Of a stretch of DNA of 64,000 nucleotides, positions 9,632-58,422 are shown piece by piece; positions within the stretch are counted from its first letter, which is position 1, and each line of letters opens with the position of its first letter. Both the position numbers and the translations under genes were made by a program. Under the pieces are notes generated by a model. The model saw only the letters and a list, made by a program, of their open reading frames with translations, had not been told where the DNA came from and made no database searches. The DNA is from a bacterium (GTDB lineage Bacteria; Hydrothermota; UBA3073; JACQXS01; JAGMCI01): assembly GCA_030018315.1 (NCBI GenBank), contig JASEGA010000006.1, positions 1,271 through 65,270 of the forward strand, in the 5' to 3' direction.

Positions 9632-10870
9632 ATGAAAAGAGTATTTATAGGGATAATTTGTTATTTTATAACAAATGGATACGCTTTTACACAGGGTATG
9701 GATTGGGTATGTGCGACAGACAGTGCACCATGGCATGGAAGAGCATTCCATTCATCAGTTGTATTTGATAACAAGATGTGGATTATAGGCGGTGGGTGTG
9801 AAGAGGGTGGGATGGTATTAAATGATGTCTGGTATTCTTCTAATGGAGTCAAATGGGTATGTGCTACAGAGAATGCTGAATGGCTGCCAAGATGGGGACA
9901 TACATCAGTTGCATTTGATAATAAGATTTGGGTTATTGGAGGACTTGATGCTAATTTTGAGTTTAAAAATGATGTCTGGTATTCTTCTGATGGAACTAAA
10001 TGGGTATGTGCTACAGAGAATGCGGAATGGTCGCCAAGGATTGCACATACATCAGTTGTATTTGACGACAAGATTTGGGTTATTGGTGGATTTGGCTTTC
10101 CTTTTGAGTTTAAAAATGATGTCTGGTATTCTGCTACCGGAGATAGTTGGACACTTGCTACAGATAGTGCTGAATGGAATCCAAGAGCTGCACATTCATC
10201 AGTTATATTTGATGACAAAATTTGGGTTATTGGTGGATTTGACACCACTTTTATGGTTACAAACGATGTCTGGCATTCTACTAATGGAATTAAATGGGTA
10301 TGCGCAACAAATGACGCAGAATGGAGTGCAAGATATAGTCACTCATCAATCGTATGTGAGGATAAGATTTGGGTTATTGGGGGAATAGATGACTACGAGT
10401 ATATGAACGATGTTTGGTACTCAGATAATGGAAGCAATTGGTTATGTGCAACAGAAAGTGCACAGTGGTCACCAAGATATGCACATACATCATTAGTATT
10501 TGATAACAAAATGTGGGTCATTGGAGGTGAAGAAATAATAGGAGACAGTGTGAGTTATCCAACTGATGTATGGTATTCAGTTATTGCAGGAATTACAGAA
10601 AATAATGTCCAATCAGATAGACTCTATCTTAATGTTACACCAGTTATTGCAAGAGACTATGTAAAAATAAGATACAAAAATAACGGGGATGTAAAAATAT
10701 TTAATATATTAGGGAATACGGTAAGGAACTTTAAAACCGTAGACGACAGAGATGAAATAATTGTAGAATTAAAAGATAACAATGACAAAAGATTACCTCA
10801 AGGTGTATATTTTATTCAACTTAAAACCAAAGCTACCAGTGCAACTGCTAAATTCATAATCATGCAGTAG
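9632..10870 (+). CDS. Kelch/galactose-oxidase-type beta-propeller repeat protein with a T9SS C-terminal sorting domain
   Basis: Six or more repeats of NDVWYSS.G.KWVCATENAEW.PR..HTSVVFD.KIWVIGG. The C-terminal ~90 aa match the T9SS CTD pattern (LYLNVTPV...FIQLKT). Confidence 0.75.
   Translation: MKRVFIGIICYFITNGYAFTQGMDWVCATDSAPWHGRAFHSSVVFDNKMWIIGGGCEEGGMVLNDVWYSSNGVKWVCATENAEWLPRWGHTSVAFDNKIWVIGGLDANFEFKNDVWYSSDGTKWVCATENAEWSPRIAHTSVVFDDKIWVIGGFGFPFEFKNDVWYSATGDSWTLATDSAEWNPRAAHSSVIFDDKIWVIGGFDTTFMVTNDVWHSTNGIKWVCATNDAEWSARYSHSSIVCEDKIWVIGGIDDYEYMNDVWYSDNGSNWLCATESAQWSPRYAHTSLVFDNKMWVIGGEEIIGDSVSYPTDVWYSVIAGITENNVQSDRLYLNVTPVIARDYVKIRYKNNGDVKIFNILGNTVRNFKTVDDRDEIIVELKDNNDKRLPQGVYFIQLKTKATSATAKFIIMQ
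9700..10560 (+). repeat. intragenic tandem repeats of ~141 bp (Kelch blades)
   Basis: Near-identical nucleotide units repeat through the gene. They generate the spurious antisense/alternate-frame ORFs 9661-10248 and 9822-10388. Confidence 0.6.
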
Positions 10871-10975: not shown

Positions 10976-11563
10976 TTAGGCGGATTTACCGTATCTATCT
11001 TTATACACAAATGTAGATAGTTCCTTCCTCAGCGGTGGCTCCGGATATTCAGCCGGATAGCCGACTGGCATAAGCTCAACTACAGCAATACCATCTGGGA
11101 CACCAAGTATTTTAGCTGCCTCTTTTGCATCAAATGCACCTACATGGACTGTACCAAGTCCATATGAATATGCGGCAAGTGTCAGATTTTGCAGTGCTAA
11201 TGCGACATCAAACATAAACCAGTCCCCTTTATCTGTCCTCGGCTCACCTTTATAGAAGCCAGCCTTCTTAAGCTCGGCACAAGCTACAAGAACAACAGGT
11301 GCCTCAACAATACCGGGACGGGCAGGATTACGCTCAGATAAAGTAGTAACAAGCCTCTCCTTTACTGATTTATCTCTTACTACAATAAACTCCCAGCACT
11401 GAGTATTTGCCCATGAAGGTGCCCAACGAGCAGCTTCAAGTAACTCATTTAGTAAATTATCAGCAATATCATCAGGCTTATACTTCCTTATACTACGCCG
11501 CTTCTTAATTGCTTGCATTACATCTCCACAGGTCATACGACCCGTATGGAATCCTTCGGACAT
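10976..11563 (-). CDS. nitroreductase family protein; the N-terminal 14 codons derive from an inserted mini-element
   Basis: MSEGFHTGRMTCGDV then MQAIKKRRSIRKY, a paralog of 687-1244. The true start may be the internal ATG (MQAIKK), which has a GGAG RBS inside the element. Confidence 0.85.
   Translation of the reverse strand: MSEGFHTGRMTCGDVMQAIKKRRSIRKYKPDDIADNLLNELLEAARWAPSWANTQCWEFIVVRDKSVKERLVTTLSERNPARPGIVEAPVVLVACAELKKAGFYKGEPRTDKGDWFMFDVALALQNLTLAAYSYGLGTVHVGAFDAKEAAKILGVPDGIAVVELMPVGYPAEYPEPPLRKELSTFVYKDRYGKSA
11524..11560. repeat. family-A miniature palindromic element, long form (ctccacaggTCATACGACCCGTATGGaatccttcgga)
   Basis: Near-identical to 14253-14288. It contains the palindrome AGGATCC(T) split by a nested hairpin CATACG-ACC-CGTATG. 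Confidence 0.8.
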
Positions 11564-11575
11564 AATCCCTCCTTA

Positions 11576-11607
11576 AACTTTTAGACTTTTAGACTATTAG
11601 ACTTTTA
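11576..11607 (-). promoter_or_regulatory. TTTTAGACT motif site F2, upstream of nitroreductase 10976-11563
   Basis: aacttttagacttttagactattagacttttaa. Confidence 0.5.
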
Positions 11608-11609
11608 AT

Positions 11610-12017
11610 TTACTTCTCACATAGCTCAATAAGTACACCATGAACAGCACTCGGGTGCAAGAATGCCACCTTCTTAGTAAATGCACCCTTACTTGGTACT
11701 TCGTCTATTAATTTAATACCCTTAGATTTAAGCTCAGTTAATACTTTTTCAATATCTTTGACTTCAAAGCATAAATGATGTAACCCCTCCCCTTTCTTTT
11801 CTAAAAACTTCGCTATTGGACTATCCTCTCCTATAGGTTCAATAAGTTCAATCTTAACGCTACCTGCATCTCCACAGGATCCTTCGGAAAGCACAGCAAC
11901 CTTAACCTTCCGATAATCTACTTTAGCAAACTTCTCAACTTTAAGTCCAAAAGAAGCCCAAATCTTAATCCTATCCTCAATACTCCTCACCGCTATCCCA
12001 ATATGGTCAAGTTTCAT
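11610..12017 (-). CDS. methylmalonyl-CoA epimerase / VOC (glyoxalase-fold) protein
   Basis: 135 aa; MKLDHIGIAV...HHLCFEV...HGVLIELCE. It carries the short family-A insert (LSEGSCGDAG). Confidence 0.7.
   Translation of the reverse strand: MKLDHIGIAVRSIEDRIKIWASFGLKVEKFAKVDYRKVKVAVLSEGSCGDAGSVKIELIEPIGEDSPIAKFLEKKGEGLHHLCFEVKDIEKVLTELKSKGIKLIDEVPSKGAFTKKVAFLHPSAVHGVLIELCEK
11869..11889. repeat. family-A element, short form (ctccacaggatccttcggaa), in frame inside the epimerase CDS
   Basis: Same sequence as the arms of the long form but without the nested hairpin. Confidence 0.75.
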
Positions 12018-12029: not shown

Positions 12030-12086
12030 GTAGGGGTTTGATTTATCAAACCCAAACTTATTGGGCACGATAAATCGTACCCCTAC
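12030..12086. repeat. large imperfect inverted repeat (GTAGGGGTTTGATTTATC ... GATAAATCGTACCCCTAC)
   Basis: Arms of 18 nt with 2 mismatches. The core resembles the GGGGTTTGATTAATCAAACCCC palindrome found in the T9SS CTD copies. Confidence 0.5.
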
Positions 12087-12126
12087 ATTTAAAAACAAAA
12101 TGCCATGAATGTGCGAACTCAATTAA

Positions 12127-13437
12127 CTATAGCAATTTTCTTTTCTTTGCTTCCTCTTCAAGCCATGGCCTAAACTTTGGGTGTGCTACTTTAATTAAGG
12201 ACTCAGCACGCTCTCTTAAGTTTTTGCCATGTAAGTATGCGACTCCATACTCTGTAACCACATAATGGACATCCGCCCTTGTTGTTACCACTCCTGCACC
12301 TAACTTAAGTGATGATACAATCCTTGATACTTCACCCCCTTTAGCTGTTGATTGTAATGCAATTATAGGCTTACCACCTTTGGATTGAGCCGCACCACGA
12401 ATAAAATCTACTTGACCACCAAACCCAGAATATATCTTAACCCCAATTGAGTCTGCACAGACCTGACCCGTCAAGTCTACTTCAATAGCAGAGTTTATTG
12501 CAACCATCCTTTCATTTTGTGATATTATAAACGGATGGTTTGTATAATTTGCGGGATGTAGTTCAAATACAGGATTATTATGTGCATATCCATATGCTCG
12601 TTTTGACCCCAATATAAAAGTAGCAATTACTTTGTAAGGGTGTAAAGTCTTCTTTGCACCAGTTATTATTCCAGCTTCAATAGCCTCTATTATACTGTCA
12701 GATACCATCTCAGTATGTATACCGAGGTCTCTTTTATCTTTCATTGCCTTAAGGGCAGCATTTGGGATACCACCTATACCAAGCTGAAGTGTGGAACCAT
12801 CCTCTACAAGGTCTGCTATATGAGCGCCTATACTCTTCTCTGTATCAGTTAACTCTTTTACAACTAATTCGGGTAACTCCTCTGAGACTTCCACAATTTT
12901 ATCCACCTGAGACACATGAATAAACGAATCACCAAGTGTCCTCGGCATCTTATCATTAACCTGTGCTACCACAAGATTAGCAGTCTCAGCCGCCGCCTTA
13001 GATGCTAAACACTCAACTCCAAAACTCATAAATCCATGCTCGTCAGGAGGTGAAAGATGCAAAAGGGCAACATCAGGTTTCATAGCACCTGAGTAAAACA
13101 GGTCCGGTATCTCGTATAAGAATACAGGAATATAGTCAGCACGCCCCTCATTTACTACTTTCCTATCTGCAGGTCCGACAAAAAGTGAGTTGTGTCTAAA
13201 GTGACCTTCCATATCAGGCTTTGAAAGCGGGTCTTCACCAAGCAAAAGGACATGGGTTATCTCAACATCATATAGCTTATCTTTACGCTCGGCGAGTGCA
13301 TCCAGCAACTTTAATGGAGTAGCTGCATTCCCACTTATGTACACACAGTCGCCACTCTTTATCACAGAGACTGCCTCTTCAACAGAGACAAGCTTCTTCT
13401 TGTAATCGTCAAACCAGCTTGAGGTCGCACCTCTCAT
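12127..13437 (-). CDS. acetyl-CoA hydrolase/transferase family CoA-transferase (4-hydroxybutyrate / succinyl-CoA:acetate CoA-transferase-like)
   Basis: 436 aa with conserved N- and C-terminal CoA-transferase family I-like blocks (GDCVYISGNAATP...; ...SGFGGQVDFIRGA). Confidence 0.85.
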   Translation of the reverse strand: MRGATSSWFDDYKKKLVSVEEAVSVIKSGDCVYISGNAATPLKLLDALAERKDKLYDVEITHVLLLGEDPLSKPDMEGHFRHNSLFVGPADRKVVNEGRADYIPVFLYEIPDLFYSGAMKPDVALLHLSPPDEHGFMSFGVECLASKAAAETANLVVAQVNDKMPRTLGDSFIHVSQVDKIVEVSEELPELVVKELTDTEKSIGAHIADLVEDGSTLQLGIGGIPNAALKAMKDKRDLGIHTEMVSDSIIEAIEAGIITGAKKTLHPYKVIATFILGSKRAYGYAHNNPVFELHPANYTNHPFIISQNERMVAINSAIEVDLTGQVCADSIGVKIYSGFGGQVDFIRGAAQSKGGKPIIALQSTAKGGEVSRIVSSLKLGAGVVTTRADVHYVVTEYGVAYLHGKNLRERAESLIKVAHPKFRPWLEEEAKKRKLL

Positions 13438-14555: not shown

Positions 14556-14577
14556 TTAAACCTCCTCACCACTTTAT

Positions 14578-14608
14578 GACTTTTAGTCTATTACACTTTT
14601 AGATTTCC
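14578..14608 (-). promoter_or_regulatory. TTTTAGACT motif site F3, upstream of alanine dehydrogenase
   Basis: gacttttagtctattacacttttagatttcc. Confidence 0.5.
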
Positions 14609-14647
14609 TTATTAAAAATCAAACCTGACACCAAAGATTCTCATTAA

Positions 14648-22946: not shown

Positions 22947-22952
22947 CTCCAT

Positions 22953-22980
22953 ACTTTTAGACTCTTAGACTCTTATTCTA
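22953..22980 (-). promoter_or_regulatory. TTTTAGACT motif site F5, upstream of the four-helix-bundle gene
   Basis: acttttagactcttagactcttattcta. Confidence 0.5.
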
Positions 22981-23467
22981 TTATTACTAATGTATCGCCC
23001 CCATTTACCGTCATCCCCTGTTTGACAAGTACCTGCTTAACAAGCCCATCTCTTGGTGCCTTCATCTCATTTTGCATCTTCATCGCCTCAACTATCAAAA
23101 GACCACTACCCGCTTTTACTGTATCACCTGGCTTTACCCCTACTTCTATAACTAACCCTGGCATGGGAGCAGTGACCTTAACTTCACCAACATGAGTAAT
23201 CTCAGGCTTGAGTTTAGTGAGTGCTTGTACTTGCTCATCCTCAACACTTACCTTGAATCTCTCACCATCTACCGAAATAGTATTCTCATCCTCAATAATA
23301 ACATCATACGACTTGTTATCAACTATCAGTGATAAATGTGAATTACTGCCAACCTCCACAACAGTAGCTTTCATAGGCTTGTTATCTATATAAACTTTGA
23401 ATCCATTACCTTCTTTTTCTAACTCAACTTTGAACTCCTTATCATCAACTTTAGCAATATATGCCAT
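22973..23467 (-). CDS. biotin carboxyl carrier / biotinyl-domain subunit
   Basis: C-terminal EAMKM biotinylation motif (VEAMKMQNEM) plus a ~90-aa N-terminal extension. Confidence 0.85.
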   Translation of the reverse strand: MAYIAKVDDKEFKVELEKEGNGFKVYIDNKPMKATVVEVGSNSHLSLIVDNKSYDVIIEDENTISVDGERFKVSVEDEQVQALTKLKPEITHVGEVKVTAPMPGLVIEVGVKPGDTVKAGSGLLIVEAMKMQNEMKAPRDGLVKQVLVKQGMTVNGGDTLVIIE

Positions 23468-23480
23468 TTATACTGTCTTA

Positions 23481-23511
23481 CTTTTAGACTATTAGACTTT
23501 TAGTCTATTAT
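23481..23511 (-). promoter_or_regulatory. TTTTAGACT motif site F6, upstream of the biotin carrier gene
   Basis: acttttagactattagacttttagtctatta. Confidence 0.5.
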
Positions 23512-25010
23512 CACATCTTTCTCAATTCTGCCTGCCTCGCTGCAAACTTCCATGCACTGTAACGGGATTCGGATACTTTTGGGATAACTGAAACTTTCTT
23601 CTCTTTTAATGTCATCGCAATGGTTGCCCCTATAGCGGCAATGGGCTGGTTTGTCTTCTTTAATTCTGTGCTACCAAGCATCTTATCTACAAATGTTGTA
23701 TTATACTCACCACTTATAAAATATTGATTATTCATTACAAGCTGATGAAATGGTATACTTGTCTTAATCCCTATTATCTTATATTCAGAGAGTGCTCTCC
23801 TCATCCTTGATATAGATTCATCTCTCGTAGGTGCCCATACAAGTAACTTTGCAATCAACGGGTCATAAAACATAGGAACTTCAAATCCAGCAAATACTCC
23901 ACTATCTACTCTAACACCAGGTCCATTAGGCTCTATTAACTCAACTATTTTACCAGTTGATGGCATAAAGTTATTATCCGGGTCCTCAGCAGTTATCCTG
24001 CACTCTATAGCTGCACCTGATAATTTTACATCCTCTTGCTTAATTGATAGACGCTCACCTGCTGCTATCTTAAGCTGCTCCTTTACAATATCTATTCCGG
24101 TGACAAGCTCAGTTACAGGATGCTCAACCTGTAGCCTTGTATTCATCTCAAGGAAGTAGAAGTTCCTGTCTTTGTCTACCATAAACTCAACTGTCCCCGC
24201 ATTTGTATAACCTGACGCCTTAACTGCCTTGACTGCAGCAGCACCCATCTTAGCTCTAAGCTCTTTAGTCATCAAAGGTGAAGGCGACTCCTCTACTAAC
24301 TTCTGATACCTACGCTGAATAGAACACTCACGCTCACATAGATGGACTGCATTCCCATAGTTATCGGCAAGTATTTGAAACTCTATATGACGAGGAGAGT
24401 CAAGATACTTCTCAATATATATTGTTGGATTACCAAATGCAGACTTGGCTTCTGACATCGCTTGCTTCATAGCTGGCTTAAGCTCAGACTCAGACTTCAC
24501 TACCCTCATCCCTTTGCCACCACCACCAGCAGCCGCTTTTATAAGAACAGGAAAACCTACTTCATTCACAACCTTAATGGCTTCAGCTTCACTTGTAAGC
24601 CCTTTACTGGAACCGGGAGTCACAGGCACTTTAGCTTTAGTTATCGTCTTCCTTGCTTCAATTTTATCACCAAGTAGCCTTATAGCTTTGGAGTTGGGAC
24701 CAATGAATATTATATTATGAGACTCACAAGCCTCTGCAAAATATTCGTTTTCAGCTAGAAAACCATAACCTGGATGAATAGCGTCAGCATCCGTCTTCTT
24801 AGCTACTTCTATAATCTTGTCTATCTTAAGGTAGCTCTCAGCTGCAGGTGCCGGCCCTATCTCATATGCCTCATCTGCATACCTTGTATGCAATGCACTC
24901 CTGTCAGCTTCTGAATAAACTGTAGCTGTAAGTATACCAAGCTCCTTACACGCCCTAAGTACCCTTATTGCAATCTCACCACGATTCGCTACTAAAACCT
25001 TCCTAATCAT
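23511..25010 (-). CDS. biotin carboxylase subunit (acetyl/propionyl-CoA carboxylase or pyruvate carboxylase A-type)
   Basis: 499 aa; MIRKVLVANRGEIAIRV..., an ATP-grasp fold, GGGGKGMR. Confidence 0.92.
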   Translation of the reverse strand: MIRKVLVANRGEIAIRVLRACKELGILTATVYSEADRSALHTRYADEAYEIGPAPAAESYLKIDKIIEVAKKTDADAIHPGYGFLAENEYFAEACESHNIIFIGPNSKAIRLLGDKIEARKTITKAKVPVTPGSSKGLTSEAEAIKVVNEVGFPVLIKAAAGGGGKGMRVVKSESELKPAMKQAMSEAKSAFGNPTIYIEKYLDSPRHIEFQILADNYGNAVHLCERECSIQRRYQKLVEESPSPLMTKELRAKMGAAAVKAVKASGYTNAGTVEFMVDKDRNFYFLEMNTRLQVEHPVTELVTGIDIVKEQLKIAAGERLSIKQEDVKLSGAAIECRITAEDPDNNFMPSTGKIVELIEPNGPGVRVDSGVFAGFEVPMFYDPLIAKLLVWAPTRDESISRMRRALSEYKIIGIKTSIPFHQLVMNNQYFISGEYNTTFVDKMLGSTELKKTNQPIAAIGATIAMTLKEKKVSVIPKVSESRYSAWKFAARQAELRKM

Positions 25011-25130: not shown

Positions 25131-25226
25131 AATTGTCATTGTGAGCCCCAACAACGGCGGGGCGTGGCAATCTCATCAGTTAGAGAAAAATGAGATTGCT
25201 TCGTTTCACTCGCAATGACATTTCTG
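25131..25226. repeat. MITE-like element with ~12-bp terminal inverted repeats (TTGTCATTGTGAGC ... GCTCGCAATGACA); family C
   Basis: The arms GTCATTGTGAG / CTCGCAATGAC match at 10 of 11 positions. The internal GAGATTGCTTCG...CTCGCAATGACATTT module recurs at 53868-53900 and, diverged, at 31995-32025. Confidence 0.5.
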
Positions 25227-25388: not shown

Positions 25389-25670
25389 TTGAAGAAAGCA
25401 AATCCCAAATCCAAAATATCCGCAGGATCCTGTGGATTGGAGGCATATCCTAATCCATTTAGGGATAAAACAGTGATTAGGGTTCAGGGATTAGGTAGGG
25501 GTTTGATTAATCAAACCCCTACACTACAAATTTATGATTTAGCTGGCAGAATAGTTAAGTCGTTCCCACTAATCACTAGCCACTTATCACTATCCACTGC
25601 TGTTTACTGGGACGGAAGTGATAACGATGGCAAGAAGCTCGGTACCGGAAAAATGCTAATTTTGAGATAG
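25389..25670 (+). pseudogene. orphan T9SS C-terminal sorting-domain fragment, a duplicate of the CTD of 27570-28121
   Basis: AYPNPFRDKTVIRVQGLGRGLINQTPTLQIYDLAGRIVKSFPLI... is ~85-90% identical at the nucleotide level to the reverse complement of 27640-27850. It has no cargo domain and starts at a TTG. Confidence 0.45.
25496..25521. repeat. perfect 26-bp palindrome TAGGGGTTTGATTAATCAAACCCCTA inside T9SS CTD coding sequence
   Basis: Self-complementary; a second exact copy lies at 27764-27789. It encodes GLINQTP. Confidence 0.8.
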
Positions 25671-25768
25671 ACCTCTGGTTAGCTGTCTATAAAAGTTTTT
25701 TCAGTTCACACAGTTGAACTCTAAGAACTTAATATAATCTTACATTTTGATACTTTATTTTTGAATTT

Positions 25769-27319
25769 TCATAACGGTATATTACCGTGCTTTCTTGCCG
25801 GATTTGTATCACGCTTGTTATCAGTTAACTCAAGTGCCTCAATTAGACGTGGCCTTGTATCCCTTGGCCTTATGACTTCGTCTATGTAGCCCTTACTCGC
25901 AGTTATGTATGGGTTAGCAAACTTCTCAGTATAATCAGATACAAGTTTACTCTCTAATGCTTTTGGGTCTTTAGCTTCTTTCAGCTCTTTTCTATAAAGT
26001 ATCTTAACTGCACCCTCGGGTCCCATAACTGCTATCTCACCAGTTGGCCATGCAAAGTTGACATCTGCCCTTGTATGCTTTGAACTCATAACACAGTATG
26101 CACCACCATAAGCTTTACGCGTTATCACAGTCATCCTTGGTACAGTTGCTTCACAGAATGCATAAAGGAGCTTAGCACCATTCTTTATTACACCACCCCA
26201 CTCCTGAGCAGTTCCTGGAAGGAAACCTGGCACATCTACAAATGTAACAATTGGTATATTAAAGCAGTCACAAAATCTGACAAACCTTGCCCCTTTTATT
26301 GCCGAATTTATATCAAGCACACCTGCAAGTACTGATGGCTGGTTTGCTACTATTCCTACAGACCTACCACCAAGTCTTGCAAACCCAATAATAATATTTT
26401 TAGCAAAGTGCGGTTGGACTTCAAAGAAGTCACCATCATCTACTACCTTTCTTATTATCTCGCTCATATCATAAGGCTTTATAGGACTATCTGGTACAAT
26501 ATTATCAAGTGCATCATCTATACGGTTCGGATCATCTCTACACTCAACTAAAGGTGGGTCTTCAAGATTATTTTGTGGTATATAGCTGAACAGCTTTTTA
26601 ATTAACTCTATACACTCCACTTCACTCTCTGCTGCAAAGTGCGCAACACCAGATTTCTCATTGTGGACCATAGCACCACCAAGCTCCTGAAATGTCACAT
26701 CCTCATGTGTAGCTGCCTTCACAACATCAGGGCCTGTCAAAAACATATAAGAAGTCTCCTTTACCATAAATACAAAGTCAGTTATAGCAGGTGAATAAAC
26801 TGCACCACCCGCACACGGTCCCATAATAGCAGAAATCTGTGGCACTACACCTGATGCAAGCACATTGCGTAAGAATACATCTGTGTAGCCTGCAAGACTA
26901 TCTACACCTTCCTGAATACGAGCACCACCTGAATCCTTTATCCCAATAATTGGACAGCCATTTTTCATCGCCATATCCTGTAGCTTACATATCTTTTCAG
27001 CATAAGCCTTAGAAAGTGAGCCACCAAATACAGTGAAGTCTTCCGAGAATATATACACTAACCTACCATTTATTTTGCCATAGCCAGTAACAACACCATC
27101 CCCGGGTATCTTTTTCTTGTCCATATCAAAGTCAGTACAGCGATGAGTGACAAACATATCAGTTTCTCTAAAACTGCCTTTATCAAGCAATAGGTCTATC
27201 CGCTCCCTTGCAGTAAGTTTACCAGCGGAATGTTGTTTATCTATTCTCTCTTTGCCACCACCAAGTAGAGCCTGCTTCTTAAACTCATCAAGCTCTTTAA
27301 GTTTATCATTTTCTTTCAT
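25769..27319 (-). CDS. acyl-CoA carboxyltransferase (propionyl-CoA carboxylase beta / methylmalonyl-CoA decarboxylase alpha type)
   Basis: 516 aa; the carboxyltransferase N- and C-domains are intact (GGARIQEG...; ...GGAYCVM...). Confidence 0.9.
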
Positions 27320-27569
27320 AATCCCCCCTTAATATAACCACATTTAATATCATTGGATTATTTGCATAGTTCAAAATACAGCTCCTGATTTTTAGTACAT
27401 ATAGTCACAAAATATGCACCAGCTTGAGAATAGTCATACTCCTTTAGCCTAATGGACCGCCGTTTGTATTTTGTAGAATTCACTATATTTTTGCCTCCAT
27501 TATTACAGAGTCAAATAGAAAGCAATTTAAGTTTACCTTCCTCTTTATGCCAACTTTTGAGTTTTAGTA

Positions 27570-28121
27570 TTATCTCACAACAATTATTTTCTTTGTTATA
27601 CTTTTATTACCAGTAGTAAGCTTGCAAAAGTATACACCTGAGTCAACAAATTTTCCAGCTTCATCCTTACCATCCCAAGAAACAGCAGTGATTAGTAAGA
27701 AGTGATCAGTGATAAGTGGAAAAGACTTAACTAATCTACCAGCCAGATCATAGATTTGTAGTGTAGGGGTTTGATTAATCAAACCCCTACCTAATCCCTG
27801 AATCCTAATCACTGTTTTCCCACTGAATGGATTAGGATATACTTCTAACAATTCGTCATTCGTCATTCGGATTTCGGATTTTACCGTCTCTTCTACTCCA
27901 TAAGCATCAACCTTTATAAGATATACATCAGACTCTCCTGCCCCATATGACCAAGTAGATCCAGCTATAATATAGCCACCGTCTCTCGTCTGTGCCACTG
28001 AGTAACCGAAGTCCCAATGAGTTCCGCCATATGTCTTTTCCCAGCCAGCAGATACTACATTAGCCAAACCTGGTAACCCCAATATAGTCACTATTACAGC
28101 CTTAGCAATCAACCTTAACAT
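27570..28121 (-). CDS. small secreted repeat protein with a T9SS C-terminal sorting domain
   Basis: Signal peptide; YGGT.WDFGYSVAQTRDGGYIIAG repeat; C-terminal CTD VYPNPFSGKTVIRIQGLGRG... Confidence 0.7.
   Translation of the reverse strand: MLRLIAKAVIVTILGLPGLANVVSAGWEKTYGGTHWDFGYSVAQTRDGGYIIAGSTWSYGAGESDVYLIKVDAYGVEETVKSEIRMTNDELLEVYPNPFSGKTVIRIQGLGRGLINQTPTLQIYDLAGRLVKSFPLITDHFLLITAVSWDGKDEAGKFVDSGVYFCKLTTGNKSITKKIIVVR
27764..27789. repeat. second copy of the 26-bp perfect palindrome TAGGGGTTTGATTAATCAAACCCCTA
   Basis: Exact match to 25496-25521. Confidence 0.8.
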
Positions 28122-33407: not shown

Positions 33408-34781
33408 ATGGCAGTCCGTATTTTAGTTGTAGACGATGAACCTAATATCAGAAAATCTATAAAAGGATTACTTGAAGATAAAGGCTACGAACTCGAGACA
33501 GTTGCTACTGGTGAGGATGCACTTTTTTGTATAGAGAAAAACAACTTTGATATCGTCTTACTTGATATTGTCTTACCCGGAATTGATGGGATTCAGGTAC
33601 TTGAAAAGATTAAACAAAACAAACCTTATCTTCCTGTAGTTATGATTTCAGGTCAGGCTACAATTGATAATGCAGTAAAAGCGACTAAACTTGGTGCTTA
33701 CGATTTCTTAGAGAAACCAATAATAGGCGAAAAACTGCTACTCCTCATAACACATCTTCTTGAGCATGAAGGGCTTAAAAGACAGGTTGCCAAGCGATAC
33801 ACAATGGTTGGGTCAAGCAATGCCATAAAAAAACTTTACGAAGAGCTTAAAAGAGCTGCCCAATCCAATAGCCGTGTCCTTATTCATGGTGAGAGTGGCA
33901 CAGGCAAAGAACTTGTAGCTCGTGCTATACATGACTACAGTCCTCGAAAAACACAGCCTTTCATAACAGTAAATTGTGCTGCTCTCCCTAAAGAACTTAT
34001 AGAAAGCGAGCTTTTTGGCTACGAGAAGGGTGCATTTACAGGCGCTATTACAAAGAAAGAGGGTAAATTCATTTTAGCAAATACTGGCACTCTATTTTTG
34101 GATGAGGTAGGTGATATGAGTCTTGAGACACAAGCTAAGTTGTTGCGAGTGCTGGAAGAGGGTGAAATAGAGCCATTGGGTGGCAAAACGCCGATAAAAG
34201 TGGATGTAAGAGTTATCTCTGCTACTAACAAGAATCTGGAGTATGAGACTCAAAAAGGAAATTTCAGACAAGATCTACTCTTCAGAATAAATGTAATCCC
34301 TATTTTTGTGCCTCCGCTACGGGAGCGAATTGAGGATATAGGGATTCTATCTAAATATTTTATTAAGTTATTTTGTGAAGAAAACGGTAAACGGTCAAAA
34401 GATATAGAGTCAAGTGCTATAAAAGAACTTGAAAAATATAACTGGCCAGGTAATGTAAGGGAGTTAAAGAATCTTATGGAGCGTCTTGTAATTATGGTAC
34501 CCAGAGATACGATTACTGTAAACGATGTAGTCTCACTATCCCGACCTGTCGGGATAGGAAGCAAGGAAATGATTGTAGGGCAAGGCTTTAGCCTTGCAAA
34601 AAATGAAGAGTTGTCACTTCGGCAGAGAGTAGATAACTTTGAGCGCACACTTATCCAGCAAGCACTTATAGCAGCTGACTGGAATATTAAGAAGGCAGCA
34701 GCCATACTTAAAACTGACCGTGCTAACCTTTATCGTAAGATTAGAGAGTATGGTCTAACTGATTGTAGGGGTAATTCATGA
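33408..34781 (+). CDS. sigma54-dependent response regulator (NtrC family: REC - AAA+ - Fis HTH)
   Basis: ILVVDDE...D receiver; GESGTGKE Walker A; GAFTGA sigma54-contact motif; ELKNLMER; C-terminal HTH. Confidence 0.9.
   Translation: MAVRILVVDDEPNIRKSIKGLLEDKGYELETVATGEDALFCIEKNNFDIVLLDIVLPGIDGIQVLEKIKQNKPYLPVVMISGQATIDNAVKATKLGAYDFLEKPIIGEKLLLLITHLLEHEGLKRQVAKRYTMVGSSNAIKKLYEELKRAAQSNSRVLIHGESGTGKELVARAIHDYSPRKTQPFITVNCAALPKELIESELFGYEKGAFTGAITKKEGKFILANTGTLFLDEVGDMSLETQAKLLRVLEEGEIEPLGGKTPIKVDVRVISATNKNLEYETQKGNFRQDLLFRINVIPIFVPPLRERIEDIGILSKYFIKLFCEENGKRSKDIESSAIKELEKYNWPGNVRELKNLMERLVIMVPRDTITVNDVVSLSRPVGIGSKEMIVGQGFSLAKNEELSLRQRVDNFERTLIQQALIAADWNIKKAAAILKTDRANLYRKIREYGLTDCRGNS
34576..34598. 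repeat. family-D palindromic 23-mer (TAGGGCAAGGCTTTAGCCTTGCA), in frame within the NtrC linker
   Basis: An exact 23-nt match lies at 44431-44453 (intergenic). It encodes VGQGFSLA between the AAA+ and HTH domains. Confidence 0.75.
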
Positions 34782-35095
34782 ATTACCCCTATAACATTAG
34801 TGTCAGACTACAACACCTTTGTGTCAAATTGCTACACAAATAAAAGTTTTAGATACTCTTAAATATTTTACATAAAACACTAAAAACCCATCCCCACAAT
34901 AATTCAGGGAAATAGCTACCAAATTATTGCCCAAATGTCACAGAAGTTGCTATGTTAAGAAAGAGGGTGATTGTAATGAAGAAGAAGTTAGAAGTAGCGG
35001 CAGTTGGGATTGGAGGGTTAGTTCTTTATACCCTCGCTATGGGGATAATGCTTTTTATTAACGCACTAATATTGGTGCGTTAAAGGAGGTGAACT

Positions 35096-37624: not shown

Positions 37625-39391
37625 ATGAAAAGAGTGTATATTTTTATTCGCAGAATCCTGTGGATAAGTTTGCTTCTTATTTCTAACGTGATAGAGGCAA
37701 ACTCGAAAGGATTAGGTGATCCCAGCAAAGGGTTTGGTATGCTTAACCTTCAATTGAGGCAAATTTTTCAATCCGATAGGTTAGGATATGAGCCTGCCCC
37801 GACTTGTCGGGATTTGGCAATCTCACAGTATAAGGATGGCGATTATACTTTTAGCAAGAACATTCAGGTAAACGATGATCCAGCAGGTACAGCAGAGCAT
37901 TTCACAAAGATTGGAGGAGCTAATATCATTGTAGCACGTGGTGACACGCTATATATTGTGTGGTCAGATGCTCGTGAGGGTACAACTGGGTCACAGATTT
38001 ACTTTGCTAAAAGTATAAATGGTGGACAAAGTTTTCTACCAAATGTTAAAGTAGGCGATATGCCGCCAAATACAGCGATTATGTTTTTTCCTTCTATAGC
38101 AGTAGATGCTATTGGGAGAATCTATGTAGCATGGTCAGATTCAAGAAACTCATCAGGAGATACGGCTACTTTTGATATATATTTTGCAAAGAGTGATGAT
38201 GGTGGTTTGACTTTCAGCCAAAATAGATGTGTAACTGACACGAGTAGCAGAGAAATTCAGTATGGGGTGAGCATAGGAGTGGCTGGTGATAATGTTTACA
38301 TTGTATGGGCTGACGCGAGACACTGGGATGGTTCTGGTGACCCTAAATTTCATATCTATTCTGATAGAAGTAGAGATGGTGGACTCACATTTAGTAAAGA
38401 TATAAAAGTTGACGACTTTCCTGTTGACGTTCCGCCATACGGTGAGATTTTTCCATGTATTAATGTATTAGATGATACTGTATATGTTATATGGTCTCAC
38501 TTGAATTTAGATGCGTTGGAGTGCGACATTAGGCTTGACAAGAGCGTTGATGGTGGTGTGACATTTGGAACTGACATTAAGGTTACGGTATCTGGATTAG
38601 CGCAGATTTTCCCCTCTCTTACAATTGATAAGAATAGAGCCATCCACATAGCCTTTTATAATGTGAATCTTACAGGTCGCTGGCAGATTCTGTACGCAAA
38701 GAGTACAGATGGTGGTGCTTCATTTAGTCAAATTACGGAAGTTACAGATACAACATTTACTTATAATGGTATGAGTATAAATATAACTACTGATACAGAC
38801 TGCAACCCATATTGTGTGTGGGAAGACTTAAGAGAGTCACTGAACATTTCTCATCCATACTTTAGCTATAGCGATGATGGCGGTAATTCATTTAGCAAGA
38901 ATGTGCGAGTAGTGGATAAACCGGGTACAATAGGTGATGTTGACCAGTTTGGAGTTGGATTAGCAGTAGATGATAACAAAAATGTCTATGCAGTGTGGAG
39001 TGATAGACGCAACCATGCACAATGGTACGATATATATTTTGCTAAAGGAACACAAGCAGGAATAGAAGAGAGCCAAAGCTCAAAGCTCAACCCCGACCTT
39101 GTCGGGACAAAACTGGAAATCTATCCTACCCCATTTAGACAGACAACAAGTATCAGCTATCAATTGCCAGCAAGAGGTCGTATTTCACTAAAGGCTTACA
39201 ATTTAGCGGGTGGGTTAATTGAAGTACTGATAGATGATATAAGAGATTGTGGGACTCATACATTAGGATGGACTCCTGAAGGATTCTCAACTGGAGTATA
39301 TTTCTTGAGACTTGAGTTCTCTCCATTTTCACAAAAGGATGAGTTAGTCAATGACTTTGTAACCACAAAAAGGGTAGTGATACTGAAGTAA
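37625..39391 (+). CDS. BNR/Asp-box repeat (sialidase-like beta-propeller) protein with a T9SS C-terminal sorting domain
   Basis: Six or more S-x-D-G-G-x-T/S-F boxes (SINGGQSF, SDDGGLTF, SRDGGLTF, SVDGGVTF, STDGGASF, SDDGGNSF); C-terminal LEIYPTPFRQTTSISYQL... Confidence 0.75.
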   Translation: MKRVYIFIRRILWISLLLISNVIEANSKGLGDPSKGFGMLNLQLRQIFQSDRLGYEPAPTCRDLAISQYKDGDYTFSKNIQVNDDPAGTAEHFTKIGGANIIVARGDTLYIVWSDAREGTTGSQIYFAKSINGGQSFLPNVKVGDMPPNTAIMFFPSIAVDAIGRIYVAWSDSRNSSGDTATFDIYFAKSDDGGLTFSQNRCVTDTSSREIQYGVSIGVAGDNVYIVWADARHWDGSGDPKFHIYSDRSRDGGLTFSKDIKVDDFPVDVPPYGEIFPCINVLDDTVYVIWSHLNLDALECDIRLDKSVDGGVTFGTDIKVTVSGLAQIFPSLTIDKNRAIHIAFYNVNLTGRWQILYAKSTDGGASFSQITEVTDTTFTYNGMSINITTDTDCNPYCVWEDLRESLNISHPYFSYSDDGGNSFSKNVRVVDKPGTIGDVDQFGVGLAVDDNKNVYAVWSDRRNHAQWYDIYFAKGTQAGIEESQSSKLNPDLVGTKLEIYPTPFRQTTSISYQLPARGRISLKAYNLAGGLIEVLIDDIRDCGTHTLGWTPEGFSTGVYFLRLEFSPFSQKDELVNDFVTTKRVVILK

Positions 39392-45825: not shown

Positions 45826-46170
45826 ATGGGACCTGTTGTTAGTATAGAAGAAACTGAATTATTTAACCCAATCCCAAAGGTATTCAGCTTATCACAGAAC
45901 TGGCCTAATCCAACAACCGGGCTCACAACCATCAGATATGGACTTCCAAAAGAGGTATCACCTCAAGATAGCTATGTAGATATCAGAATATACGACATTA
46001 GTGGCAGAGTGGTAAGAAGATTAGTAAATGGTTTCCAGCCTGCCGGCTACTATACTATCAACTGGGATGGCAAGGATGATGAAGGTAAATCGCTACCGTC
46101 TGGCATGTATTTTTACCATCTTGAATCCGATGGTTATACGGCAGCTAGAGTACTCGTCCTGATGAGATAA
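45826..46170 (+). CDS. T9SS C-terminal sorting domain, in the same frame as the tail-fibre-like ORF and separated from it by a single TAA
   Basis: NWPNPTTGLTTIRYGLP...YDISGRVVRRLV...GMYFYHLESDGYTAARVLVLMR. Only 16 sense codons lie between the TAA at 45775 and this ATG. Confidence 0.5.
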   Translation: MGPVVSIEETELFNPIPKVFSLSQNWPNPTTGLTTIRYGLPKEVSPQDSYVDIRIYDISGRVVRRLVNGFQPAGYYTINWDGKDDEGKSLPSGMYFYHLESDGYTAARVLVLMR

Positions 46171-48965: not shown

Positions 48966-50111
48966 TTAGTTTCCATTTAACATAACTAATTTCTTGAAGC
49001 TAATGGACTTCCCAGTCTCTAACTTACAGAAGTAAATGCCTGATGCAACTCTATTCCCAAAATCATCCTCTCTATTCCAAACAACCGTGTATACTTCCGT
49101 GTTCTCCTTCTTATCTATTAGAGTTTTTACCAATCTACCAGCCATATCATACACTCTTACACTAACTGGCATTTTAGGAGTCCCATTTAGGATTTGGAAT
49201 CTGATTTCTGTCATTTGAGCAAATGGATTAGGATAGACTTCAAGTTTTGGGTTTTCTTTCACTCCCACATAGGGGTCAGTATTAGTAAATTCATATATGC
49301 TGCCATTTCTATGTGTAGCATAGATTCGGTTTGTATCATCATTTCTACCTCTACCAACAGTCAAATCAGCAGACGCACCTGTAACAGCGTCAACAACAGT
49401 GTCAACCCATGCACTACCATCCCATGAGTGCTCACGGATATTACCAAATTGTGCTGTAGTGTATACTCGTATTTTACTGTTTTTACTGTCACTCTTTGTT
49501 CTACCAAGCCATAATCCGTAACGGCTGAGCATAGGCGCACTTGGGCATATGTCAACCTGTTGCCAATTCCCTGCAGAGTATGTGAGTTCATAAACATACC
49601 CCCCTCCACAAGAAACATAAACTCTGTTCACTAAATCATTCCTACCAGAGCCAACAGCTGCTTTACACAACCGATACGAGGGTAAAGTGATGACTGACTC
49701 CTCATAATAGGAGCTATTCCAACTGTACTCTCTGAGGTATGGAGAATGCCCATCAGGACAATAGACTCTATTCATATCATACCATCGTTTCGTCCATTCC
49801 CCAATTGCAACTGCTGCAAAAGCTGTATAGGGAGGACCCAAATTAGCCTTTAAATAAGTCCATTCGTATATATGACCATTGAACCCCGATACATACACCC
49901 TTTGTATACCATCATTTCTACCATCTCCCACCACTTGGTAAAGCCAACCAGGGCATGTCCCTATTCTTACTGCGTTCCAACCACACCATACGCAATTGAA
50001 GAGAGTAACAACTGATATCATCGCTATCAATATCAACATGAGCATCCTCCTTCCTGCCTTGACGCGAGGCAGACGAGACAGGAACTCACTCATTGTGCTA
50101 AACTTTTTCAT
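48966..50111 (-). CDS. repeat (VG.GRND...RVY...G.IYE.TY) beta-propeller-like secreted protein with a T9SS C-terminal sorting domain
   Basis: Four internal repeats; C-terminal LEVYPNPFAQMTEIRFQ...FCKLETGK. Confidence 0.65.
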   Translation of the reverse strand: MKKFSTMSEFLSRLPRVKAGRRMLMLILIAMISVVTLFNCVWCGWNAVRIGTCPGWLYQVVGDGRNDGIQRVYVSGFNGHIYEWTYLKANLGPPYTAFAAVAIGEWTKRWYDMNRVYCPDGHSPYLREYSWNSSYYEESVITLPSYRLCKAAVGSGRNDLVNRVYVSCGGGYVYELTYSAGNWQQVDICPSAPMLSRYGLWLGRTKSDSKNSKIRVYTTAQFGNIREHSWDGSAWVDTVVDAVTGASADLTVGRGRNDDTNRIYATHRNGSIYEFTNTDPYVGVKENPKLEVYPNPFAQMTEIRFQILNGTPKMPVSVRVYDMAGRLVKTLIDKKENTEVYTVVWNREDDFGNRVASGIYFCKLETGKSISFKKLVMLNGN

Positions 50112-52867: not shown

Positions 52868-53836
52868 GTGCTTTTTTTATTAGTATTTTTTACTTTTACA
52901 GTTCAAGGCGATACCTCCCCTAAGCGGTTCCTTTATGGAGTAAATGTAGAACATGGTGAGAACTTGACACAGGTAGCAGAAAAACTTTATGCCCAAGGTA
53001 TAATAGAACACAAATTTTGGTTTAAGGTGTGGGCTAAAGTTACAAACCAAGACCGTAATATTAAGGCTGGTTACTACATTTTTAAAAAGCCTACCCCAAT
53101 TCGTGAAGCGTTAAGAACACTTGTTGAGGGCAGGAATGCAGGTATAAGAGTTACAATCCCTGAAGGTGCAACACTTCGTGAAATTGCGTGGCTATTCAGG
53201 AGATATGGGGGAGTCAATAAAGAAGAGTTTATTAGGCTTGCACATGACACTTCTTATATAAGAAGCTTTGGTATACAAGCGAGCTCCCTTGAGGGCTACC
53301 TTTTTCCGAAGACTTATTTTATTCCATATGGAACGAATCCAAGAGAAGTGATACCATTTATGATTGAGCAGTTTTTTCAAGTCTTTGGTGAAGATTTTTA
53401 CAATAGGTCAAAAGAAATAGGGTTTACACTTGAGGAGGTAGTAACTTTTGCCTCCCTTATTGAGAAAGAGGCTGTATGTGATTCTGAGAAGCCTATAATA
53501 TCAGGAGTCTACCATAAGCGGCTTAAGCATAAATGGCCACTCCAGTGTGATGCTACTATTCAATACATTTTACCTGAACGAAAGCCGCGTCTTACTTACT
53601 CTGACCTTTCCATCCATTCCTTATATAACACTTATATTTATCAAGGTTTACCTCCCGGTCCTATATGTTCACCTGGGGAGAGTTCTATCAGAGCTGCATT
53701 ATGGCCGGATGAGACTGATTATTTATACTTTGTTGCACGTGGTGATGGCACACATATATTTTCGAAAACCTTGAAAGAGCATCAAATTGCAAAAGAGAAA
53801 GTTAGAGAGAAACAAGAAATGACGAAATCCAAATGA
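52868..53836 (+). CDS. mltG: endolytic murein transglycosylase MltG (YceG family)
   Basis: N-terminal TM; YceG-like domain (…GYLFPKTY…; …YFVARGDGTHIFS…). Confidence 0.85.
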   Translation: MLFLLVFFTFTVQGDTSPKRFLYGVNVEHGENLTQVAEKLYAQGIIEHKFWFKVWAKVTNQDRNIKAGYYIFKKPTPIREALRTLVEGRNAGIRVTIPEGATLREIAWLFRRYGGVNKEEFIRLAHDTSYIRSFGIQASSLEGYLFPKTYFIPYGTNPREVIPFMIEQFFQVFGEDFYNRSKEIGFTLEEVVTFASLIEKEAVCDSEKPIISGVYHKRLKHKWPLQCDATIQYILPERKPRLTYSDLSIHSLYNTYIYQGLPPGPICSPGESSIRAALWPDETDYLYFVARGDGTHIFSKTLKEHQIAKEKVREKQEMTKSK

Positions 53837-53839
53837 CGA

Positions 53840-56184: not shown

Positions 56185-57264
56185 ATGAATACAGATAATC
56201 CTAAACTAAATTTTTTCATTTTTCATTTTTTATTTTTCATTTTGTTATCCGGTTGTGGCAAGAAGGAGCCGATTGGGTATGAGATTGTGAAACCGAGGGA
56301 GGGTGAAATTAGACAAGCGCGGGGTTTCGTGGTTAGGTGGAATAATTATTCAGAGTTTGCATCTATGAGTAGAGCTACAGAGTTATTTGCGGGAGAGGAG
56401 TGTGACTTTAAGGCGATGGCTTTCATTTGCTTTGAATTTGATACTACTCTTTTACCTGATTCACTTTGGCTACTTGGAGTGAATTCTGGTAAAGTGAAAG
56501 TTTGTAAAGTCACAGGATTATGGAACCCGGACTCTATAAATTGGAGTCATATTCCGGATACAGGTGAGATATTTGATACTGTTGAAATTAAAGAAGGTGA
56601 TACCTGTTTGGTTTACATACAGGATTCAGTACCGGATTCAGTATTCTCTATTGGCTTCTTACCATATATTGGGATGGCAAGCTTTAAACCACTACGACTG
56701 TCAGTAAAGGAGGATACAAATTTCTATTCTCCAAGTAAGAAAGTGTACATTGATACAAGTTATTTTACACAAGATTTGCCAATGATTGAGACAGGTGCTT
56801 ATACTACACAATGTACACTTTGGTTTAGTTTGGAGATACCAGTGTTTCTCAAGGAGACCACTTATATTCCAATTGACTCTTTTTTAGGTGATACTGTGTT
56901 TCCATGCACTTTGGTTGTAGGTGATTCTTTTATTACTGATACTTCTGTGATTAATTACATCCTTAACTTTAAATCTGCTACCGTAAATGATGCGTCATTT
57001 TATATTCCTATAGATACAACTAATTCTTACAAATGGGATATAGGGATTTATGCTGGCTGTAGAGGTGTGTATTCATCAAGTTCTCACCCAAAAGGTGACA
57101 CACTTAGTTTATCAATTGAGAGAATAGTAGATAGGTGGTTTAAAGAAGGCGACTGCTGGCTTGTTTTGAAAGGTGATGCACAGAAGATTGGACGTGTTGT
57201 GTTTGATATAGAGGGTGCTCAGCTTTCTATAACTTATATACTACCACCTAAAAGAAGGGAATGA
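56185..57264 (+). CDS. hypothetical lipoprotein
   Basis: MNTDNPKLNFFIFHFLFFILLSGCGKK (lipobox LSGC). The start at 56185 is preferred over the track start at 56140, which overlaps bamA. Confidence 0.5.
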   Translation: MNTDNPKLNFFIFHFLFFILLSGCGKKEPIGYEIVKPREGEIRQARGFVVRWNNYSEFASMSRATELFAGEECDFKAMAFICFEFDTTLLPDSLWLLGVNSGKVKVCKVTGLWNPDSINWSHIPDTGEIFDTVEIKEGDTCLVYIQDSVPDSVFSIGFLPYIGMASFKPLRLSVKEDTNFYSPSKKVYIDTSYFTQDLPMIETGAYTTQCTLWFSLEIPVFLKETTYIPIDSFLGDTVFPCTLVVGDSFITDTSVINYILNFKSATVNDASFYIPIDTTNSYKWDIGIYAGCRGVYSSSSHPKGDTLSLSIERIVDRWFKEGDCWLVLKGDAQKIGRVVFDIEGAQLSITYILPPKRRE

Positions 57265-58355: not shown

Positions 58356-58393
58356 ACAGAAATGTATGGGCGGGGTAACCCCGCCCCTACGAA
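58344..58393 (+). repeat. E-family REP-like element (TCATTGATGTAGACAGAAATGTA-GGGCGGGGTAACCCCGCCC-CTAC), copy 1
   Basis: GC hairpin GGGCGGGG-TAA-CCCCGCCC followed by a T6 run. Its first 12 nt encode S-L-M-stop of the preceding gene. A partial copy lies at 58436-58447. Confidence 0.8.
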
Positions 58394-58422
58394 GTGATTT
58401 TTTACCTTGACTTGGTAAATAA

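Follow-up and report, generated by a model that had tools for sequence, protein, structure and literature searches.

Why two copies of the coding sequence for a secretion domain should share a perfect palindrome is the question raised by a 64,000-nt stretch of DNA, called the window below, from a Hydrothermota bacterium (UBA3073; JACQXS01; JAGMCI01; assembly GCA_030018315.1, contig JASEGA010000006.1, positions 1,271-65,270, forward strand). Part of the sequence for the C-terminal domain (CTD) of a type IX secretion system (T9SS) cargo protein, the product of gene B, recurs in the window as an orphan, copy A, and both contain the same self-complementary 26-mer. A preliminary description of the locus suggested a recombination or protein-binding site that could mediate the shuffling of CTDs between T9SS cargo genes. 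The data presented here make it probable, instead, that the 26-mer is the core of a 28-bp GTAG-tagged hairpin of the repetitive extragenic palindrome (REP) kind, a discrete and dispersed mini-element that is tied to a subfamily of Y1 (HUH) transposases resembling the REP-associated tyrosine transposases (RAYTs) and that rides in the CTD as a passenger.

Exact copies of the 26-mer, TAGGGGTTTGATTAATCAAACCCCTA, lie at 25496-25521 and 27764-27789, as the preliminary description had it, and one with three mismatches lies at 12031-12056; no occurrence is expected by chance (100 shuffles). Self-complementarity reaches one base farther on either side, which makes the element a perfect palindrome of 28 bp, GTAGGGGTTTGATTAATCAAACCCCTAC, whose 14-nt arms adjoin directly, located at 25495-25522 in copy A and, in identical form, at 27763-27790 in gene B (no strand is assigned to either). 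The 28-mer begins with GTAG on both strands, and this tetranucleotide is base-paired within the stem of a REP-like hairpin that, for copy A as single-stranded DNA, folds at -12.6 kcal/mol (z -4.95). Only one frame per strand is free of stop codons, reading x-RGLINQTP-T in either direction. In gene B it encodes G-RGLINQTP-T, in agreement with the GLINQTP translation given earlier. A terminator or promoter role for the hairpin was considered and rejected, scan counts being at background and no T-run following it. At Rfam gathering thresholds the window contains no RNA family, and neither tRNA nor tmRNA genes were found in it.

The distribution of the element in public genomes is best described from an exact-match scan for its 22-nt core, with one genome per species, which yielded at least 120 stretches and at least 128 sites; the counts by context below refer to the 128 sites listed. 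The core is present at a minimum of 120 unrelated places in genomes named for about 15 phylum-level lineages: Aminicenantes/Acidobacteriota, Nitrospirota, Sumerlaeota, Bacteroidota, Ignavibacteria, Zixibacteria, Dadabacteria, Patescibacteria, Planctomycetota, the Cyanobacteria-related Melainabacteria and Sericytochromatia, Chloroflexota, Armatimonadota, Chrysiogenota, the candidate groups Edwardsbacteria and Fischerbacteria, and others. Several genomes have 5-15 copies among the matches listed. The full 28-mer, with GTA...TAC ends, is found at 77 sites, and several others have compensated GCA...TGC ends. Beyond these ends the flanks are unrelated, with no more than 0.13 bit of information at each of 12 flanking positions and no target-site motif within them. 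About 96 sites (roughly 75%) are extragenic in that no long open reading frame (ORF) passes through them; the intragenic ones comprise 11-12 RAYT-like ORFs, 4 CTDs, and about 16 other long ORFs, with transposase or housekeeping genes accounting for the majority of them. No match to the core was obtained in 2.9 million viral contigs.

Among the other carriers of the 28-mer in frame, housekeeping or large genes of other phyla (loci L027, at ~1338; L093, at ~5328; L110, at ~6852; L017, L077, L081, and L036), are those for a thymidylate kinase in a Roizmanbacteria metagenome-assembled genome (MAG), for QueA and a TrmH-like methyltransferase in a Zixibacteria MAG, and for a 2,666-aa surface protein. 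QueA, aligned to a solved structure, contains two adjacent hairpins and is longer by 10 residues. A clean +28-bp insertion signature was rejected as a general description, the thymidylate kinase and QueA alignments giving a similar-length replacement and two adjacent hairpins, respectively. Separately, a composite repeat of the form ...GATTTCAAGGTCCTTGATCTTGGA-[palindrome]-TAC...CATTGGAAT surrounds the 28-mer in Aminicenantes, Patescibacteria, and Chrysiogenia MAGs (loci L021, L031, L035, L063, L079, L091, L111, and L117). Because this longer repeat is shared by several phyla, composite repeats, too, are cross-phylum.

In the RAYT-like ORFs, the 28-mer is in frame at a fixed position between the HUH and Tyr motifs (carrier loci L003, L013, L020, L045, L060, L080, L083, L088, L098, and L108). 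The carriers share the layout ...MPNHxHGII-(spacer with RGLINQTPT)-WxLMKNP...LGKIIRxFK...WQRNYYEHIIR, in which the HUH and WQRNYYEH motifs are discernible. Two of them score 29.7 and 27.0 bits against Y1_Tnp (PF01797; gathering score 23) and a third protein scores 20.0. Among NCBIfam models, the one that the carriers match best is NF047646, for REP-associated tyrosine transposases (E 1e-14 to 3e-16), at 51.6 and 59.6 bits, under the equivalog cut-off of 80, and relatives are annotated as 'REP element-mobilizing transposase RayT' in their sources. The family is very large, with at least 7,969 matches at E <= 1e-10 among 8,000 scored candidates. A GLINQ-type peptide separates the HUH and Tyr motifs in 47 of 77 parsed homologues, which is no unbiased frequency because the candidates were biased toward proteins with words in common with the query. 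The remainder have RDLINQIPT, GLMNQTPT, RRGEVTSPLRG, GRDESRPY, or other peptides that, judged at the level of the protein, appear to be palindrome-encoded, and some have none. Residues specified by paired stem positions covary among the homologues (G..T 64 times, D..I 9 times, mixed pairs 0), and some spacers contain several partial or different hairpins consecutively.

A trace of the same transposase family lies next to gene B. On the minus strand at 27358-27483, 87 bp downstream of the gene B stop codon and 280 bp from its palindrome, 41 codons (KRRSIRLKEYDYSQAGAYFVTICTKNQ) match the N terminus of a full-length, palindrome-carrying RAYT-like protein with 64% identity over 36 aa (BLASTP, E 2e-15) and seven RAYT-like proteins in tblastn comparisons (E 1e-7 to 4e-11). 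The similarity covers the first 36-41 residues, without the HUH and Tyr motifs, and tblastn located no further part of the gene elsewhere in the window; with the rest of the transposase gene absent, the segment represents a gene remnant. Taken alone, the 41-aa fragment has no match in Pfam, NCBIfam, or PDB, and its homology is seen by direct comparison with full-length relatives. A homologue search with the fragment yielded only further short N-terminal pieces, and none of the matches was an intact gene of the same MAG. Short ORFs of 32-76 aa that consist of the RAYT-like N terminus only are common in public data (proteins P0174-P0234), so truncation near the same place as in the window is seemingly frequent. 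A weak tblastn match (E 0.25) to the HUH region of the transposase (SSHIHGIL) was also noted on the minus strand at 12090-12143, adjoining a hairpin at 12030-12086; it could be the central remnant of a second RAYT-like gene, the match being too weak to rely on. A similarity between CTDs and transposases in a PN-F-G pattern ahead of the palindrome (E 2.5e-4, no composition correction) was discarded, as it was judged to be driven by the nine shared palindrome-encoded residues.

Gene B (27570-28121, minus strand) encodes a secreted protein of 183 aa. A hydrophobic, signal-like helix at the N terminus is followed by a DUF5122-like repeat, a linker, and a complete T9SS type A CTD (~27573-27851). 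The gene product is identical to MDI6839878.1, a 'T9SS type A sorting domain-containing protein [bacterium]', and matches TIGR04183 with 51.3 bits (cut-off 23) over profile positions 1-71 of 72 and PF18962 with 38.2 bits (cut-off 27). An AlphaFold2 model shows the CTD as a beta sandwich with a predicted local distance difference test (pLDDT) score of 86-98. In this model, residues 109-119 (GLGRGLINQTP) form the loop between strands 103-108 and 120-124, placing the palindrome-encoded segment R112-T120 in the beta1-beta2 loop, which in the family alignment varies more among homologues than any other part of the domain. Just before the CTD, a heptamer repeat (TCGTCAT/TCGGATT; 27852-27891, minus strand) is read in frame as the linker KSEIRMTNDE, a second instance of genome-typical simple repeats translated within a T9SS gene. 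Copy A has a degenerate version of the heptamer repeat at 25398-25415, and a reverse-complement relative at 53808-53847 straddles the junction of the ORFs 52868-53836 and 53840-56176.

Copy A (25389-25670, plus strand) is an ORF of 93 codons that specifies part of a CTD and has neither a signal peptide nor cargo; the earlier designation as an orphan is correct. It reaches 22.0 bits against TIGR04183, just below the cut-off of 23, over profile positions 1-38 of 72, and about 16 residues present in the family alignment are missing from it through an internal deletion. In the AlphaFold2 model of gene B, the missing residues correspond to the penultimate beta strand (162-170) and part of the last strand. 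Copy A is probably a pseudogene relic, a decayed gene fragment rather than a usable cassette. The idea that it is a fresh duplicate of gene B was dropped, since once the palindrome is masked the two agree at only 73% of residues, and some copy A residues match other paralogues.

The homologous stretches of the two copies form an inverted repeat of 197 nt without gaps, with the left arm at 25437-25633 (plus strand) and the right arm at 27652-27848 (minus strand), inside the CTD-coding part of gene B; the arms bracket a carboxyltransferase gene (25769-27319, minus strand). The duplication described earlier is thus real, at 83% rather than ~87% identity, and its copies are inverted, which had gone unstated, with copy A truncated at both domain ends. 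Mismatches between A and B affect 8 of 58 nt on the left flank of the palindrome and 25 of 111 nt on the right. The longest run free of them spans 49 nt (25483-25531) with the palindrome at its centre, an arrangement with P = 0.0009 if the 33 mismatches were placed at random. Synonymous changes give a weaker signal: none of 10 codons is changed inside the palindrome and 11 of 41 are changed outside (P ~0.04).

Paralogues would place the acquisition of the palindrome within one small group of CTDs. Judging by contiguous protein accession numbers, five of the gene B homologues probably belong to the MAG from which the window derives. One of them, the paralogue P0002 (MDI6839662.1), is encoded on another contig, is 74% identical to gene B, and also has GLGRGLINQTPTLQIYD. 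In MDI6839456.1, very probably from the same MAG by its accession, the loop reads GLG-ISERQTIN-LQIYD and lacks the RGLINQTPT peptide, and two further homologues attributed in the same way have longer, unrelated loops. The 26-mer, which had been suggested as a feature to look for throughout the CTD genes of the genome, is shared by gene B and copy A, with its peptide in P0002, and is missing from the three other CTDs in the window (48981-49244, 45901-46167, and 39113-39223), whose loops are ordinary. With the palindrome masked, copy A is nearest to gene B (73%) and to P0002 (66%), and comparison of the three sequences reveals no mosaic at the palindrome. The simplest history has the ancestor of one small CTD subfamily acquire the palindrome once, after which the genes duplicated and copy A then decayed.

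The same loop is occupied by the same hairpin in a second lineage. When metagenomes were scanned for copies of the palindrome lying within 23-48 nt of a Pro-Asn-Pro codon pattern, 26 stretches were retrieved, about 24 of which belong to CTDs of one other subfamily (xPNPFNSAVTIAVDC-RGLINQTPT-VEIFD...SGVYLVRA...KRIVYLK). This lineage has 18 distinct CTD genes with the 28-mer and with cargo regions of varied size; the loop is the one used in gene B and the CTD family is quite different. Paralogous CTDs of the lineage have other GTAG hairpins in this loop (GTAGGGGCGTATTGCAATACGCCCCTAC, GTAGGGGACGGGTCTCCCGTCCC..., GTAGGGGCGGGTTTTACGCC..., and GTAGGGGAGGGTCTTGTGCCCTCCC) or none. In the closest pairs, near-identity begins 45-75 nt upstream of the palindrome, at the CTD start, and continues through the palindrome for 150-270 nt, with block junctions at the CTD boundary and in the last third of the CTD, not at the palindrome; the pattern of identity marks the whole domain as the unit that is copied or converted in this lineage. 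At locus L138, two adjacent T9SS genes (11445-11792 and 12973-13293) share 168 identical nt of CTD sequence downstream of the loop and are ~95% identical over the 60 nt that precede it; one holds the 28-mer, and the other a different GTAG hairpin that starts at nearly the same base. The pair differs further in the last loop, where 24 nt forming a GTAG hairpin are inserted. The alignment suggests hairpin turnover at a fixed site.

Based on these observations, a model can be formulated in which a single copy of the hairpin would have entered the beta1-beta2 loop, or replaced an earlier loop sequence, in the ancestor of the CTD subfamily, and would have survived there because the loop tolerates almost any sequence. 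Duplication of CTD-bearing genes would then have carried the hairpin along, giving rise to gene B, MDI6839662.1, and copy A, the last of which would have decayed to a cargo-less, truncated pseudogene in inverted orientation on the other side of the carboxyltransferase gene. As for movement, the Y1 transposase would probably recognise the hairpin on single-stranded DNA and cut at GTAG, whereupon the hairpin could be copied or exchanged for another; the biochemistry of IS200/IS605 and Escherichia coli RAYT enzymes serves as the model for the binding and cutting step. Such predicted cutting would explain the dispersal, the sharp 28-bp boundaries, and the hairpin replacement in the second lineage. 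Within coding DNA, the surviving copies would be those in the sole open frame and in tolerant loops. After export, the T9SS CTD is removed by the PorU sortase, which would make CTDs tolerant sites; since they are multi-copy domains that evolve concertedly, they would also spread the hairpin. For the T9SS protein itself, the palindrome would be a passenger and no functional part of the sorting signal.

Several points weigh against a REP-like passenger of this kind. Where a comparison is possible, the palindrome replaces sequence of similar length: in the CTD it takes the place of a loop, with one residue more than in a same-MAG CTD paralogue, and in the thymidylate kinase, aligned to a solved structure, it replaces a segment of equal length for a net insertion of 0. 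Simple cut-and-paste insertion would not lead to this outcome. The 49-nt run is evidence that more than passive descent keeps the stretch uniform, and a pure passenger model has no account of it; hairpin-level constraint, local conversion, or re-installation may be responsible, even in an apparent pseudogene. An intact RAYT-like gene is absent from the window. Elsewhere the RAYT-like carriers are mostly without further flanking copies, and the hairpin sits at a fixed site inside the transposase ORF, whereas classical REPs flank the RAYT gene. In classical REPs, moreover, the GTAG is an unpaired tail, whereas in the fully symmetric, spacer-free 28-mer it is paired on both strands. The occurrence of one sequence across phyla is unusual as well, REPs usually being lineage-specific (PMC5581495).

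A bolder scheme would have GTAG hairpins exchanged at fixed 'landing pads', namely the beta1-beta2 loop of CTDs and the HUH-Tyr spacer of RAYT-like genes, with the resident hairpin as the target of the Y1 transposase. The 28-mer would then be self-contained, would have crossed ~15 phyla with its master copy kept in the transposase frame, and would use CTDs as gene-conversion reservoirs. This scheme is tentative and, on balance, doubtful.

An exchange of CTD halves between T9SS cargo genes, with the palindrome as the recombination site, is favoured by identical copies at the same structural position with different cargo, three in this genome and in 18 distinct genes of the other lineage. The greater likeness of A and B on the left flank than on the right could be taken in the same sense, as could the weak correlation between left and right identity among second-lineage paralogues (r = 0.26), which is explained by cargo-specific linker sequence inside the 60 nt on the left. 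The palindrome is, though, for the most part unconnected with CTDs. With homology blocks that run through the palindrome, no mosaic among A, B, and P0002, and no recombinase gene within ~4 kb, palindrome-mediated shuffling is unsupported and must be considered quite improbable, and the breakpoints anticipated at the palindrome map elsewhere, to the CTD boundary and the last third of the domain in the second lineage. What survives of the function first proposed is its other half: a recurring, stable hairpin linked to a transposase family that processes hairpins makes a protein-binding or DNA-processing site a reasonable inference. A related scenario, in which the inverted CTD copies flip a 2.2-kb segment so that the gene B cargo is joined to the truncated end of copy A and secretion is switched off, in the manner of shufflon-like phase variation, has in its favour the layout of a full gene with an inverted, promoterless partial copy 2 kb away, 197 nt in common, and an identical 49-nt core. 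It is nonetheless very improbable. The arms are only 83% identical overall, no invertase or integrase is encoded nearby, and the single assembly shows one orientation. Flipping would also invert the carboxyltransferase gene of a co-directional methylmalonyl/propionyl-CoA operon, the neighbours at the locus being genes for methylmalonyl-CoA mutase, a B12-binding protein, an MBL-fold protein, carboxyltransferase, biotin carboxylase, and biotin carboxyl carrier protein.

Selection at the level of RNA, for instance through ribosome pausing or protection of the 3' part of the message, could also keep a hairpin in the loop of CTD mRNAs. Different hairpins with a GTAGGGG foot in the same loop of paralogous CTDs, covarying stems, and the better conservation of the palindrome region between A and B than of the rest of the repeat would all fit, and such roles have been proposed for many REPs (PMC3733652). 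This explanation is nevertheless unlikely, given that the apparent pseudogene copy A retains a perfect palindrome, that the three other CTDs of the window and many homologues make do with ordinary short loops, that terminator and promoter signals are within background, and that the same hairpin occurs in unrelated genes and spacers. Finally, the palindrome might have reflected nothing but conserved amino acids encoded by identical codons in two recent duplicates. Both copies do derive from one CTD subfamily and the synonymous-change test is weak, but the identical 28-mer at 120 or more unrelated and mostly non-coding places, where chance predicts none, together with the hypervariability of the encoded loop among homologous proteins, has already refuted this notion and leaves it practically no credence. 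The dispersed hairpin carried as a passenger remains the preferred reading.

Relatives of the hairpin are found elsewhere in the window. Five more GTAGGGG...CCCCTAC hairpins, with inner stems that differ and are self-complementary, are all intergenic or at gene ends, and folding of four hairpins of the family shows a stability far above that of shuffled controls. For this genome, the inventory, which covers the window and one paralogue, comprises two exact copies, one degenerate copy, five family members, and one paralogue. The intergenic compound hairpin at 12030-12086 (GTAGGGGTTTGATTTATCAAACCC...GATAAATCGTACCCCTAC), noted earlier as a related element and confirmed here, is a single long GTAGGGG...CCCCTAC hairpin (-17.5 kcal/mol, z -6.5). 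A perfect palindrome with another inner stem, TAGGGGTAATTCATGAATTACCCCTA, at 34766-34791 (no strand) overlaps the stop codon of the ORF 33408-34781. A further intergenic family hairpin, TGTAGGGGCGGGGTAACCCCGCCCCTACA, is located at 59878-59906, with degenerate copies at 58364-58390 and 60924-60950. Here, ACAGAAATGTAGGGGCGGGGTAACCCCGCCCCTAC, in intact or degenerate form, follows each of three tandem paralogous genes (57261-58355, 58902-59870, and 59912-60910), and the GTAG hairpin in 57261-60950 is duplicated along with its gene.

Other repeats in the window have a different make-up. Between the biotin carboxylase gene and copy A, the spacer contains a compound palindrome of ~85 nt (25135-25219), with outer arms GTCATTGTGAG / CTCGCAATGAC and inner arms GCAATCTCAT / ATGAGATTGC, whose minus-strand translation is VIASETKQS; similar peptides (VIARRAEPNEAIS and VIPAKAGIQ) are found in the second CTD loop at loci L127 and L138. 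Arrays of 3-5 units of the 8-nt sequence TTAGACTN occupy short spacers between consecutive minus-strand genes (1262-1294, 11573-11620, 14567-14614, 22949-22993, and 23468-23523) and may be a translation- or mRNA-level signal in operons. The 412-aa ORF at 9632-10870 contains six tandem 147-nt (49-aa) repeats of 64-82% identity.

For the locus itself, these results leave the tempting idea of a dedicated recombination site for swapping secretion tags unsupported, and the orphan copy is probably the debris of a gene within a metabolic operon. More generally, three features go beyond the REP/RAYT literature examined: an identical, sharply bounded 28-bp hairpin in many phyla, its fixed in-frame position within the gene of its presumed transposase, and the recurrence of different GTAG hairpins in the same CTD loop, including one replacement between otherwise identical sequences. 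If true, hairpin-for-hairpin replacement would offer a concrete, testable handle on the still unsettled question of how REPs move. For annotation, RGLINQTPT-like peptides predicted in proteins of uncultivated bacteria are to be read as signs of embedded repeat DNA rather than as conserved protein motifs. A full-text literature search of incomplete coverage turned up no description of REPs within T9SS sorting domains or RAYT genes, which is no proof of novelty.

Among known systems, shufflon-like or invertible C-terminal cassettes resemble the locus in the combination of a full gene with a nearby inverted, promoterless, partial 3' copy. They differ in that a site-specific recombinase is missing here, the arms have low identity, an operon gene lies between them, and the spare copy is defective. 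As a T9SS type A sorting domain (TIGR04183 / PF18962), the CTD of gene B is a complete member with the palindrome in its beta1-beta2 loop, whereas in typical members this loop is ~4-5 residues shorter and free of repeat DNA. Rickettsia palindromic elements (RPEs) offer a parallel as palindromic repeats that are tolerated in frame in functional genes, where they add or replace a surface peptide. RPEs are ~100-150 bp long, are not known outside Rickettsia, and have no known transposase, whereas the element described here is 28 bp long, occurs across phyla, and is tied to a Y1 transposase family. The ends of IS200/IS605 elements (IS608 type) combine a subterminal hairpin, recognition by a Y1 HUH enzyme on single-stranded DNA, and a cut beside a conserved tetranucleotide, features that by analogy may also apply to the GTAG hairpin; in contrast to these elements, the 28-mer has no left and right ends around a gene and no adjacent target motif, the hairpin being the entire repeated unit. 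Compared with REPIN doublets, pairs of inverted REPs around a short spacer that fold into one longer hairpin, the CTD copies are single 28-mers, and only 12030-12086 is compound.

The closest likeness is to GTAG-tagged REPs, which are short GTAG-tagged palindromes, mostly extragenic, with complementary stem changes among subfamilies, sometimes in frame in genes, and associated with RAYTs (PMC3733652, Di Nocera et al. 2013). As in the REPtrons formed by GTAG-tagged REPs and RAYTs (PMC3733652; PMC5581495, Bertels et al. 2017), the unit is a dispersed GTAG stem-loop with unrelated flanks, mostly intergenic or at gene ends, that shows compensating stem changes, association with a RAYT-type Y1 (HUH) transposase, and occasional in-frame copies. 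Presence in many phyla sets the 28-mer apart from the usual REPs. By its GTAG foot, its hairpin, its dispersal in public genomes, and its tie to RAYTs, it largely qualifies as a GTAG-tagged REP.

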